IMG/VR virus record: IMGVR_UViG_3300043812_000021
Span: 6,099 to 70,098 of that record
Direction: 5' to 3' (one strand)
Source of the DNA: a virus
DNA length: 64,000 nucleotides
Program-made: the position numbers and the translations under genes
Notes under the pieces: generated by a model
Databases searched by the model: none
Told to the model about the DNA's origin: nothing
The model's input: only the letters and a program-made list of their open reading frames with translations
In this document: one piece after another, positions 12,310-53,932 of the stretch
Layout of the letters: each line of letters starts with the position of its first letter
Position numbering within the stretch: the stretch's first letter is position 1

Positions 12310-12350
12310 ATGAAGTTATAATTTAGTTGAACATTTGTTAATACACACCC

Positions 12351-21952: not shown

Positions 21953-22488
21953 TGGAAGAATTATTTGCTAGTTTTTTCGGTGGAGCACTATTTAGTGTAG
22001 GGTTGTATGCACTAGTTGAGTTTATAATAATCGTATTTAGTAAGGAGAAAGAAAATTCTAAATCTAAGCCTGTTACTTATGATGATAAGATTCTTAAACC
22101 TGTTAATGAATCACCTAGTAACTATCCTCCAGATTATTATTCAGCTAAGGCAGTATATTATCGTGTGGCTAAGGATAAACTTAGACATAATAAGGAAGTC
22201 GTTAGTGTATTCTTTTCATATTTAGACTTTGATATTGATCATAGACTTTATAATGACTCACAAGTTATCTTAGAAACTGGTATTTATGATATTCCACCAT
22301 CTTATAATAGGAGTATATTTTTAGGTAAAAAGGATTTAAGGTTTCTAAGTTTATATTTATCTCTTTATTATGGATTTGATACTAAAGTCGAGGATAAGGA
22401 AAATAACGGTAAGTACTATTCTGTTTTATATGTATCTTGGGAAGACCCTAAAGTACCTTTGACTGTTTTTAATAAAGGAGAAGATTAA
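21952..22488 (+). CDS. Hypothetical membrane-anchored protein
   Basis: 178 aa, N-terminal TM, RBS GGAGG. Confidence 0.6.
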   Translation: MEELFASFFGGALFSVGLYALVEFIIIVFSKEKENSKSKPVTYDDKILKPVNESPSNYPPDYYSAKAVYYRVAKDKLRHNKEVVSVFFSYLDFDIDHRLYNDSQVILETGIYDIPPSYNRSIFLGKKDLRFLSLYLSLYYGFDTKVEDKENNGKYYSVLYVSWEDPKVPLTVFNKGED

Positions 22489-23015
22489 TGGTTATTAATG
22501 GTTATAATTTGGTTATTGGTATTCTTATTGGTATTTCTATTACTGTTATTATAGGCTTGATTGCTATAAATCGAGAACCTAAGGTTGAGTTGGAACCTCA
22601 AAAGGTTAAATTACCTGAGAAACAATCTTCTGATGATATAGCTTCAATAAAAAATGAGATAAGTAAGCTGTGGAACGCTTTTTCAAGTATTGATCGAAAA
22701 AGTGAAAAATTTTTTGATCAGTACAAGGAGAAGGTGAAGAGTTTACAACAGCGCATAGGTACGGATTTAGATAAAGATGATCCTCGTAGACATCTGCGGG
22801 TAAATGGTTTTAATCGTCCGGTTGTTTTCATTGTTGAGTACACCTATAACGATGACTATGGTTCCTATACTAGCTCTGATGTTTTTGCTTATAGAGAAGA
22901 TGCTGAGGGGTTTGTTAGAAAGTTGAAAGACTTACCATCTGGGGTATCTGATATATCAATTAGCCCTAGGATTGTTTATCTTGATAAGGATAAAACTTTA
23001 GATAATGTGGATTAA
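22488..23015 (+). CDS. Hypothetical membrane-anchored protein
   Basis: 175 aa, N-terminal TM then coiled coil. Confidence 0.6.
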   Translation: MVINGYNLVIGILIGISITVIIGLIAINREPKVELEPQKVKLPEKQSSDDIASIKNEISKLWNAFSSIDRKSEKFFDQYKEKVKSLQQRIGTDLDKDDPRRHLRVNGFNRPVVFIVEYTYNDDYGSYTSSDVFAYREDAEGFVRKLKDLPSGVSDISISPRIVYLDKDKTLDNVD

Positions 23016-23028
23016 TTTTTAATAGAGG

Positions 23029-23057
23029 TTGACAACTAGGGTCTTATGTTCTATACT
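23029..23057 (+). promoter_or_regulatory. Near-consensus sigmaA promoter
   Basis: TTGACA (23029-34), 17-bp spacer, TATACT (23052-57); predicted +1 near 23064. Confidence 0.8.
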
Positions 23058-23063
23058 ATGTTT

Positions 23064-23290
23064 ATGGTTAGGGACTAGCCATGGTAAAAGAGTTTAGTTC
23101 TGTAAGTTAGGTATTCAGAATACTGATGTAATATCCTAAATACTACTAGATGTTCCCAGAAACCACCTACTAAAGTGGGTGTGTAGTTCATTAATAATGT
23201 TCCTTATTTCAGTAGGGAAACTGTTTCAAACTTTTATCTGAATTCTTTGTTTGTTTTTCTTTGGCGGGGTTTTCCCTGTTTTTTTTTTAT
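23064..23290 (+). ncRNA. Orphan omegaRNA-like RNA (IS200/IS605 TnpB right-end scaffold plus putative guide)
   Basis: No ORF beyond a few codons; GGGACTAGCCATGGTAAAA...TGTTCCCAGAAAC, hairpin CACCTAC-taaa-GTGGGTG, then TGTAGTTCA (ends 23190), resembling Firmicutes IS605-type right ends as recalled; bounded by promoter and terminator. Confidence 0.62.
23264..23290 (+). terminator. Rho-independent terminator
   Basis: GCGGGG-tttt-CCCTGT followed by a long T-run. Confidence 0.7.
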
Positions 23291-23298
23291 TTTAGCTA

Positions 23299-23326
23299 TT
23301 GTATTTTAATTAAAGTATGTTATACT
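23299..23326 (+). promoter_or_regulatory. SigmaA-type promoter (extended -10)
   Basis: TTGTAT-16-TATACT with TG at 23318-19. Confidence 0.65.
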
Positions 23327-23332
23327 ATAGTC

Positions 23333-23452
23333 ATGGTTATGTTAATGCGACATTTAGTCAGACTGGCAGTGACTCTATGTTTGTTTGCATTACCTCCTTT
23401 ATTAAATTAGTCGATTAGAAGAGTACTTATCCTATGGGTAGGTACTCTTTTT
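23333..23452 (+). ncRNA. ~120-nt small RNA with exposed anti-SD, or leaderless 25-aa peptide mRNA
   Basis: Own promoter; TACCTCCTTT at 23391-23400; strong terminator AAGAGTAC...GTACTCTT plus T-run; ORF 23333-23410 MVMLMRHLVRLAVTLCLFALPPLLN. Confidence 0.5.
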
Positions 23453-23532
23453 GTTTGGGTCTATATTAATTAATGACCACTAAGATATATCTTAATATTA
23501 TTTGTTTCTAATTAGAAAGGAGTTGTCGATAA

Positions 23533-24227
23533 TTGGCAACGGTAGCAGGTCAAACGGTTAGGTATTAGCTGTTTTAAAACTTCTCTTAAACGGGTATAGC
23601 TGAATAAATAGTAGTAATAAAAGAGAATAAGCTAGTAAGAAAGACTAAGCCCTGTAATCTACTAGGGGTAGAGTTGACCAACCGTTCTAAGATAAATGAC
23701 TAACGACTAAACTTATAATGTTTTCATTATATAAAAGCCTTAGGGTGTAATGGGGAAGACTCCTATTAAGGAGTAAGATATAGTCTAATTTTATATTAAA
23801 ATATAAATATAATTTTTGTAATACCTCCAACCGAATTTACATTATGGCTAAGAACCACTTAATTGCACGTGCGCAAAGTTTGACAGCTAATAGAAGTTAT
23901 GGTACCGAAGGTGTCTACGAAATTGGTTCAATCATGCCAAGGGAACATGTATACCTCAAATATACGGGTTCTCTTACACTAGAAAGATTTCGTATGGTAC
24001 GAGACAACCTTGCTTCTCAAACAATGGATATTGCAAAGCTGGGAGAAGACATCTTGCAGGCTGACATTTTAACTATCTCTGTAATGGATAGTGCTACTAA
24101 AATGGTAGTCGAGGCATTTTATGGATGCAGTGCTTCCAGTTACAATACCAGCTATAGAGCAAACCAGATCGTATCTGAGTCTATCGAGTTTTTGTACCTT
24201 AGTTCTGGAACAGGTTCTAATTCCTAA
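23533..24227 (+). CDS. Tail tube protein, spliced: join(23533..23558,23819..24227), 144 aa
   Basis: RBS AAAGGAG plus TTG 23533; spliced product MATVAGQTVNTSNRIYIMAKNHLIARAQS...GVYEIGSIMPREHVYL resembles the phage K tail tube. Confidence 0.9.
23559..23818 (+). mobile_element. Group I self-splicing intron (260 nt, ORF-less, probably subgroup IA)
   Basis: P1 AAACGGU/GCUGUUU with U.G at the 5' splice site; P10 AGGUAUUA/UAAUACCU; P7 GACUA (23705-09)/UAGUC (23781-85) within AAGAUAUAGUC; terminal G 23818; removal restores the reading frame. Confidence 0.92.
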
Positions 24228-24414
24228 AATAGGGTATATTAGTAACTAAATAAATTAGTTTAATAGCGTATATCGTAATCTATCTATTTATGTAACGGTA
24301 TACGTTATTTTGTTTACTTTATACCCCTTTAGCGTTTTATATGATTATTGCAAGATTTAGTATTGACTGTAGGATAACGGTATACTATTATAATATTTAA
24401 AGGAGATGTTACCT

Positions 24415-25353
24415 TTGAAGAGAAAGACTAATGATTGGTGGATTGATAAAGTCCACGAATTAGTAGGTAATTCTTATATATTCTTAACTCCTTACGTTAA
24501 TACTAGAACAAAGCTACTTTACTACCATGTAGACTGTGGTCATTATAGTTATGTTAGGCCTACTAGCTTTTTAGGGTCTAAGAATACCAAGGGTGTTAGG
24601 TGTCCCTATTGTTCAAAGATAAGTAGGAACGTAAAAAATACTAAAACGGATCAAGAATGGTTAGGACAGGTTAAGTCTTTGGGTAGGAATGATTATAAAT
24701 TTTTAGAGCCTTACAAGGGTAATCATACTTCTATTAAATACTTGCATAAAGTTTGTGGTCATATAAGTAGGATTACACCTGCTAATTTTCTAGCAGGTCA
24801 TGGGTGTCCTTACTGTGCTGGCAAGTATCAAGATACTAATTCTTATAAAGATAAGGTTAGGTCCTTGTTTGGTAACGAATATACTTTGACTTCAAGTTAT
24901 CAAGGGGCTAGTAAAAAGGTAAGAGTTAAGCATAATACTTGTGGCTATGTTTGGTCTGTAAATGCTACTAACTTTATTCAAGGTAAGAGTCATTGTCCTA
25001 GGTGTCAAGAATCCTTAGGTGAGAGAAGTATAAGTAAAATTTTAAACTCTTATTCTATTAATTATATTCAACAATACATTTTTGAAGATTGCAGGTATAA
25101 AAGACCTTTACCATTTGATTTTTACTTACCCGACTATAATCTTTGTATAGAGTATGATGGTAGCCAACATTATGTTAAGAATGAGTTTTTTAGTAAACAT
25201 GATCCTTTTGAGGAAAGAAAATTAAAAGATCATATTAAGAATATGTATTGTAAGGAACATGGTATTAATATGCTACGTATTCCCTATAATCATTTTCAAT
25301 CTTTAGAAGACATTGTTCTAAAAAGACTAAGAGGAATTAAGAAAGAGGTATAA
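24415..25353 (+). CDS. Free-standing homing-endonuclease-like protein (zinc-ribbon repeats plus Vsr/DUF559-like nuclease)
   Basis: Likely TTG start 24415; repeated HxxCGH...P..F..G..CPxC units; C-terminal FDFYLP...IEYDGSQH. Confidence 0.75.
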   Translation: MKRKTNDWWIDKVHELVGNSYIFLTPYVNTRTKLLYYHVDCGHYSYVRPTSFLGSKNTKGVRCPYCSKISRNVKNTKTDQEWLGQVKSLGRNDYKFLEPYKGNHTSIKYLHKVCGHISRITPANFLAGHGCPYCAGKYQDTNSYKDKVRSLFGNEYTLTSSYQGASKKVRVKHNTCGYVWSVNATNFIQGKSHCPRCQESLGERSISKILNSYSINYIQQYIFEDCRYKRPLPFDFYLPDYNLCIEYDGSQHYVKNEFFSKHDPFEERKLKDHIKNMYCKEHGINMLRIPYNHFQSLEDIVLKRLRGIKKEV

Positions 25354-53855: not shown

Positions 53856-53932
53856 TGTTATTAGGCTAACAATTATGTTAGTCTTTTTTATTAATAAACA
53901 AAACTATATTATAATAAACAAGGTGATAATAA

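Follow-up and report, generated by a model that had tools for sequence, protein, structure and literature searches.

On the evidence of covariation and of homology to transposon right ends, positions 23066-23191 of the window (here, the whole 64,000-nt stretch of viral DNA that was analysed) are a full-length, intact omegaRNA scaffold of an IS1341-type TnpB family, and members of this scaffold family occur both in Lactobacillaceae chromosomes and in the Herelleviridae-like phages of these bacteria. The block that holds the scaffold is, with a probability of roughly 0.55, a working, trans-dependent and selfish omegaRNA gene. It would be a tnpB-less derivative of an IS200/IS605 element (IS1341-type, tnpB-only), reduced to a 9-nt left end and the complete 125-nt scaffold at 23057-23191, and the insert is placed where the -10 and the +1 of a strong, resident sigma-70 promoter meet. 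From this placement, host RNA polymerase is expected to start about 2 nt before the scaffold. The predicted product consists of the scaffold, a 16-nt guide taken from the flank and a tail, and would need no 5' processing from a tnpB mRNA. Such an RNA would act only with TnpB supplied in trans, either by the phage's own copy (RuvC-intact, frameshifted here) or, likelier, by Limosilactobacillus-type host copies. Its likeliest role would be to guide TnpB to alleles that lack the element, the element itself being kept or copied by recombination between co-infecting phages.

Source phage and layout of the locus

The window corresponds to C1:6099-70098 of a 96.7-kb IMG/VR virus record (G000; 74% complete), and all of its large ORFs lie on one strand. 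Protein similarity, at 48% or below, points to Lactobacillus and Limosilactobacillus Herelleviridae phages, and the best DNA matches to the window come from bioreactor-sludge, pig-gut, canine-gut and faecal metagenomes. The features of the locus are as follows.

23029-23057, + strand: sigma-70-type promoter TTGACA-17-TATACT, 11/12 consensus matches; resident, outside the insert
23057-23191, + strand: presence/absence block of 135 nt, short left end plus scaffold; boundaries ambiguous by 2 nt
23057-23065, + strand: short left end TATGTTTAT, homologous to the class B (TATACTTAT) and L012-type (TATATTTAT) left ends of related phages
23066-23191, + strand: omegaRNA scaffold, equivalent to a transposon right end with TTCAT terminus; matched by covariance model R1 with 27/27 canonical pairs
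23192-23207, + strand: predicted 16-nt guide TAATAATGTTCCTTAT, the first 16 nt of the flank and the 5' end of the resident transcript
23192-23262, + strand: body of the resident short transcript, which the same promoter precedes in empty alleles
23263-23290, + strand: intrinsic terminator-like hairpin (23263-23280) with a T run to 23288; resident, outside the insert

The near-consensus promoter, the sequence motifs, the terminator and the ORF-less unit of about 225 nt described in the initial annotation were all recovered in place. The promoter is the top promoter-like site within 22000-25000, and a start near 23064 gives about 225 nt up to the T run. Within the scaffold, a 5' hairpin, nested stems, a hairpin with a GAATAC loop and a terminal hairpin can be distinguished; GGGACTAGCCATGGTAAAA lies at 23071-23089, TGTTCCCAGAAAC at 23151-23163 and the hairpin CACCTAC-TAAA-GTGGGTG at 23164-23181, while TGTAGTTCA ends at 23190 and is followed by TTAATAATGTTCCTTATTTC at 23191-23210. 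The scaffold had also been placed at the predicted +1, and it begins about 2 nt after it. The unit contains no + strand ORF of at least 30 aa, and is overlapped only by a 38-aa ORF on the - strand and by a TTG ORF of 49 aa whose start lies in the terminator. The ORF upstream of the unit (22488-23015) has no PHROG match. Beyond the scaffold, folding places a hairpin at about 23199-23221 within the resident transcript body, and the terminator is conserved in the sibling phages L004 and L018 with a compensatory-looking change. The left end is short: the left-end hairpin of the full-length element (GGCAAGG...TTGCC) is absent from 23057-23065, there being only 9 nt between the -10 hexamer and the scaffold, and the left end of the class C mini-elements described below is likewise absent from the block.

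Identity of the scaffold

In a BLASTN search of 22900-23900 against cultured phages, Lactobacillus phage LP65 was the sole match. Positions 23066-23161 are 88.5% identical to the last 13 nt of LP65 gp060 plus 83 nt downstream of it (E 1e-25), and gp060 is a TnpB by its Pfam domains (HTH_OrfB_IS605, OrfB_IS605 and Cas12f1-like_TNB). The unit is likewise 91% identical over 79 nt to the 3' flank of the phage's own tnpB. A pattern scan of viral contigs found 22 further scaffold stretches, and a consensus structure derived from 21 distinct copies has 27 pairs, of which 7 show double compensatory changes; variation of the terminal hairpin among the copies is compensatory by eye. The covariance model R1, built from 21 scaffold copies, matches the window copy (G000:C1:29164-29289) over model positions 1-125 with 140.2 bits (E 2.5e-33), and the copy pairs canonically at every consensus pair. 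Exactly two R1 copies occur in the phage genome, the window unit and the tnpB-linked copy (137.2 bits), and in 37 of the 42 Lactobacillaceae host loci the R1 match begins directly at the 3' end of tnpB. Given the LP65 and tnpB-flank identities and the R1 score, the likeness to TnpB right ends that the initial annotation had proposed is genuine and well beyond chance.

The structural assignment rests on covariation, since the single-sequence fold of the 229-nt RNA is unexceptional (z -1.7). Scanning the whole window against Rfam gave no match that passed the gathering threshold; under permissive settings (E up to 10), 22900-23950 returned, on the unit, only a chance-level miRNA match overlapping the promoter, and otherwise just a group I intron downstream.

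For ISDra2 TnpB, the last ~116 nt of the scaffold and a 16-nt guide suffice, with a 12-nt seed (PMC10097598). Homology among at least 16 copies stops after TTCA(C/T/A) and the flanks beyond are unrelated, so that the guide of the window unit is assigned to 23192-23207. The right edge of the 135-nt indel coincides with this homology boundary. Upstream of the unit, 1.3-1.4 kb contain no TnpB similarity, which bears out the earlier remark that no tnpB 3' remnant precedes it. Since no tnpB adjoins or overlaps the unit, it is filed as a standalone omegaRNA.

Insertion into a resident transcription unit

The near-identical sibling L098 (G002) shares the promoter, the 70 nt after the insert and the terminator with the window, and 23057-23191 is precisely missing from it. 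The more diverged G407 and G003, as well as L063, are also empty, and L004 (G001) is filled. The promoter is identical in L098 and near-identical in G407, G003 and L063, and in the sibling phages it precedes a predicted terminated RNA unit of about 90 nt. The joint 23056->23192, which skips the 135 nt, was also found in contigs from two independent metagenomes, one of sludge and one of pig gut. Hence, the view that the unit has its 'own' promoter and terminator has to be revised, as the same signals occur without the scaffold in all these siblings and metagenome contigs; judged from these alleles, both signals are borrowed from a resident unit of early-type promoter, short transcript and terminator. 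In the empty architecture the -10 is directly followed by AATAATGT, as it is at about 20 paralogous promoters of the early type elsewhere in this genome, and emptiness is probably the ancestral state.

The block is 100% identical to the L004 copy. The upstream flank of L004 differs at about 11 of 130 nt, and the window allele is a mosaic: upstream it equals L098 (0/130 differences), and the insert with the next 70 nt equals L004. From this mosaic, the allele comparison shows that a short tract, comprising the block and about 70 nt downstream of it, has passed from one flank background to another. The identity with L004 also means that the window copy gives no test of purifying selection.

The motif preceding the insertion is TATAC, with CTAT 2 nt further 5'. 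Canonical insertion after CTAT should have left an additional AC at the right junction, which is missing. Three candidate origins of the block were weighed: a canonical insertion after CTAT with later loss of 2 nt, an insertion at the non-canonical position after TATAC, and recombination with a class B-like cassette. No Y1 TnpA transposase was found in the phages.

A group I intron lies 370 nt downstream, and the block and the intron could conceivably form an IStron composite, with the Rfam match at 23644-23807 (25 bits, E 4e-4) as its group I intron-like part. This is very improbable. A terminator and a second transcription unit separate the two, and their order is reversed relative to an IStron. 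The composite was rejected because intron and scaffold are gained and lost separately: L098 has the intron without the scaffold, and in metagenome contigs the intron (23558->23819) and the block (23056->23192) are lost independently.

The partner nuclease

The trans-dependent reading needs a TnpB from elsewhere, and the initial annotation had supposed that a phage or a host could supply it. Both sources exist. The sole tnpB of the phage (G000:C1:92128-93450; L002, L226) lies on the other strand, 63 kb away and outside the window. Its GIDLG, IEDL and HDRD motifs are intact and its product aligns to ISDra2 TnpB (E 2e-42); in this assembly it carries a +1 frameshift, an extra G in a G6 run (QGG|YPKFK), that leaves ORFs of 107 and 208 aa. 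Lactobacillaceae chromosomes encode many TnpBs that are 42-71% identical to that of the phage, and the host copies of 60-71% are multi-copy. The complete sibling G003 has two solo units and no cognate tnpB, its only TnpB being a distant one (24% identity) with a different RNA.

Scaffold similarity favours the hosts. The nearest full-length scaffolds to the window copy (86-87%) are those of L006 and of chromosomal copies in Limosilactobacillus reuteri, L. agrestimuris and L. fastidiosus; the scaffold linked to the phage's own tnpB is 76% identical to it overall and 42% in the 3' terminal part. For this reason, a Limosilactobacillus-type host TnpB is more likely to be the partner than the phage's own copy.

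All nine phage TnpBs examined keep GIDxG, IEDL and HDRD (RuvC D-E-D) and the zinc-finger CxxC pairs. A nuclease-dead repressor of the TldR type, as raised in the initial annotation, was rejected on these grounds.

Guide, insertion motif and targets

The insertion motif of the family, taken from empty sites and left-end flanks (TTTAT, GTTAT, ATTAT, CCTAT and GCTAT), is YTAT, and it is present at 5 of the 7 family elements with known empty sites. In the empty alleles of the window unit, the guide match is always preceded by TATAC (or TATAA) and never by YTAT. Cleavage of the known empty alleles is therefore doubtful, if the motif is strict. The phage's own tnpB element presents a similar case: in four siblings, the guide match at its empty site is preceded by TTTTT instead of TTTAT.

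Searches with the guide of the window unit returned little beyond chance. No second match with at most 2 mismatches occurs in the 96.7-kb genome. At C1 80-84 kb there are five 11-mer matches; these begin at an offset of 7 nt within the guide region and fall in the repeated leaders of early promoters, so they were discarded as TnpB targets. A 15-mer scan of viral contigs gave at least 119 matches, nearly all of them due to chance, and only those in L098 and in the divergent alleles L063 and L018 are meaningful. In five host genomes (at most 2 mismatches), matches stayed at the level of a reversed-pattern control; likewise, 401 Lactobacillaceae genomes (at most 1 mismatch) gave 1 exact and about 90 one-mismatch matches, similar to the control. 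The idea that the guide addresses host, competitor or own DNA was thus not borne out, no TAM-adjacent match being found in the phage, its siblings or the 401 genomes.

The picture differs for the relatives. For five other elements, sibling phages contain exact guide matches flanked by YTAT, and shuffled guides have 0. Two of these sites lie in the window. At 12312-12335, GAAGTTAT is followed by AATTTAGTTGAACATT; this is the GTTAT empty site for a 171-nt solo mini-element of the complete sibling G407 (C1:75410-75536), the guide of which matches the window's phage exactly. At 53869-53892, ATTAT is followed by GTTAGTCTTTTTTATT, the empty site of a full tnpB element in contig 3300045988_140928 (L013). 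A further example is found in L003 (6130-6230, - strand; G408), where a solo omegaRNA has a self-target in cis: an exact copy of its 16-nt guide TATCTAAGAAGAACAA follows 43 nt downstream, behind TTTAT, where a LysM/signal-peptide gene begins; the adjacent tnpB has no ATG start.

These observations bear on the proposal that the unit is a domesticated guide which benefits the phage by arming TnpB against competitors or the host, by repressing a target or by acting as a decoy for host TnpB. Its predicted expression from an early-type host-polymerase promoter would suit such a role, as would the solo guides of siblings that match YTAT-flanked sites in same-sample phages (two of them in the window's phage) and the exact cis target in L003. 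However, the guide of the window unit is only its insertion flank, its matches in the 401 genomes do not exceed chance, its empty alleles have no YTAT motif, and TnpBs that are nuclease-competent by motif leave a TldR-like repressor role unsupported. The unit is also missing from close siblings, which indicates that it is dispensable. Domestication in this sense, as suggested for the window unit in the initial annotation, is improbable.

Solo scaffolds in related phages and hosts

Ten sibling records hold 16 scaffolds, of which 7 stand behind tnpB and 9 are solo. The solo scaffolds mostly lie directly behind a sigma-70-like promoter, and at least five junction types can be told apart.

Class A: the window and L004
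Class B: found in four records; its promoter is likewise of the TTGACA-17-TATACT kind
Class C: mini-element of 171 nt, 44 nt of which form a hairpin-bearing left end, inserted canonically after YTAT
L023: promoter fused to the last 30 nt of tnpB
L012/L017: promoter between an intact tnpB and the scaffold

When an empty site of class B was sought, the flanks of the class B unit had no counterpart in G000, G001 or G002. In class C, the TAT of the insertion site and the AAT of the element together form a TATAAT box. In L012 (604-800) and L017 (6690-6886), TTGACA-17-CATAAT separates the scaffold from tnpB, the stop codon of which overlaps the -35 box; this omegaRNA promoter is thus inside the tnpB element, and its placement suggests selection for separate omegaRNA expression. 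RNA-library contigs that match the scaffold (assembled contigs only) are other copies of the family.

The main rival to a working gene is an inert hitch-hiker, that is, a dead IS right-end fragment behind a promoter, recent, harmless and accidentally transcribed, the spread of which between flank backgrounds is ordinary homologous recombination. We consider this rather unlikely, though several observations agree with it: the phage, its siblings and the 401 Lactobacillaceae genomes yielded no TAM-adjacent target, the own tnpB is frameshifted in this assembly, the solo units of G003 have no cognate tnpB, and neither the left-end hairpin nor TnpA is present. Given the identity of the window copy with that of L004, the intact structure can be put down to recency alone. 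Against it, solo scaffolds with a clean 5' boundary stand behind sigma-70-like promoters in at least five independent junction types and outnumber the linked copies in phages, whereas the host solo copies resemble ordinary truncations; the two clear ones, both in one Lentilactobacillus genome, lack a promoter and still carry 70-130 nt of the tnpB coding region. Moreover, degradation is seen in none of the seven distinct solo scaffolds (24-27 canonical pairs out of 27; 129-144 bits for those scored with R1), and the promoter within the L012/L017 elements suggests selection for separate expression of the omegaRNA. Plain decay was rejected as the solo copies score like the tnpB-linked ones under R1 and recur next to promoters. 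This recurrent, clean and promoter-proximal layout is the main argument for selected expression in phages.

A bolder and more speculative version, which we regard as unlikely, holds that these units are promoter-capturing guide genes. Their first bases would rebuild the -10 (TAT|AAT and TATAC|T), and the guides, expressed early by host polymerase, would arm TnpB of host or phage origin against siblings that lack the element, as an RNA-guided homing drive and a weapon of competition among co-infecting viruses. The motif-less empty alleles, both here and at the phage's tnpB locus, might then be drive-resistant alleles.

Comparison with known systems

Standalone omegaRNAs that act in trans are documented (PMC10691335; PMC10055086), and the biological role of the standalone form is stated to be unknown in the former. 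The OMEGA standalone omegaRNAs (Altae-Tran et al. 2021, as described in PMC10691335) resemble the window unit in that the locus has neither effector nor transposase and effector loci lie elsewhere in the genome. The window locus differs in being situated in a lytic-type Herelleviridae-like phage, in being fused to the +1 of a strong resident promoter and in being polymorphic among co-occurring phages, and its nearest cognate effectors may be those of the host.

PATE-like minimal IS200/IS605 elements encode no protein and comprise a right end and an omegaRNA, with TnpB (and TnpA) supplied in trans (Meers et al. 2023, PMC10055086). The class C units, with 171 nt, a hairpin-containing 44-nt left end and a position after YTAT, fit this description well. 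The window unit shares the precise presence/absence polymorphism between related genomes, but its left end has 9 nt and no hairpin, and its site, TATAC, is off the family motif.

The sotRNAs are also non-coding RNAs from the 3' end region of IS1341-type tnpB, but in the accessible part of PMC4615843 they overlap an intact tnpB, whereas the window unit is gene-less and has an external promoter. TldR guide RNAs (PMC10705468) likewise involve a TnpB-family guide in a phage context and the use of guides beyond transposon upkeep; unlike them, the present case has retained RuvC residues, no promoter target found and a guide RNA away from the protein gene. With the homing endonucleases and mobile introns that take part in phage-phage competition (PMC11620839), the block has in common a selfish character, presence/absence polymorphism and a short co-conversion tract; here, however, the specificity would come from a predicted RNA guide and the nuclease would act in trans.

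Standalone omegaRNAs and omegaRNA-bearing PATEs are known from earlier work. In the literature searched, no description of promoter-fused solo omegaRNAs in phages was found.

Such a natural phage population offers a direct handle on the role of standalone omegaRNAs: related phages of the same samples differ in whether they carry tnpB elements and gene-less guide units, several guides match motif-flanked sites in one another's genomes, and the gene-less units sit behind strong promoters as opposed to being excised from a tnpB mRNA. If the units work, they would provide RNA-guided homing or interference between viruses, with a nuclease in trans that is possibly supplied by the host, and would show a simple route from a transposon end to a free-standing guide gene. 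This step is the one usually invoked for the origins of CRISPR-type systems. If they are inert, they are a clean example of a stranded, transcribed IS right end.

Neighbouring elements

Several other features lie close to the block. A second small unit at 23299-23452 has an extended -10 (TGtTATACT) and a strong terminator, and ATGGTTA stands 6 nt after TATACT both in this unit and in the omegaRNA unit. It contains a leaderless, hydrophobic ORF of 25 aa (23333-23410; MVMLMRHLVRLAVTLCLFALPPLLN), in which a CGA codon is replaced by AAG (Arg to Lys) in L098 and L004. This codon replacement favours a coding reading of 23333-23410.

Further downstream, a virion structural gene at 23533-24227 (tail-tube-like, phrog_985) is split by the weakly matched group I intron. 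The intron is polymorphic, as the intron-less joint 23558->23819 occurs in sludge metagenome contigs, and L098 has two such group I introns in a row. Directly after the intron-bearing gene follows a free-standing HNH/homing endonuclease gene at 24406-25353 (phrog_559, E 3e-83). With the omegaRNA block, the group I intron and the HNH gene, the 2.3 kb of 23029-25353 thus hold three kinds of selfish element.

Elsewhere in the genome, at G000:C1:80278-88765, about 20 near-identical strong promoters (TTGACAAT...AATGTTATTAT, then AATAATGTAATAAGGAA) precede small ORFs and make up an early-gene cluster. The resident RNA (23192-23262) contains an 11-nt stretch, TGTTCCTTATT, that is antisense to the leaders of five of these early units, a match which could be due to chance.
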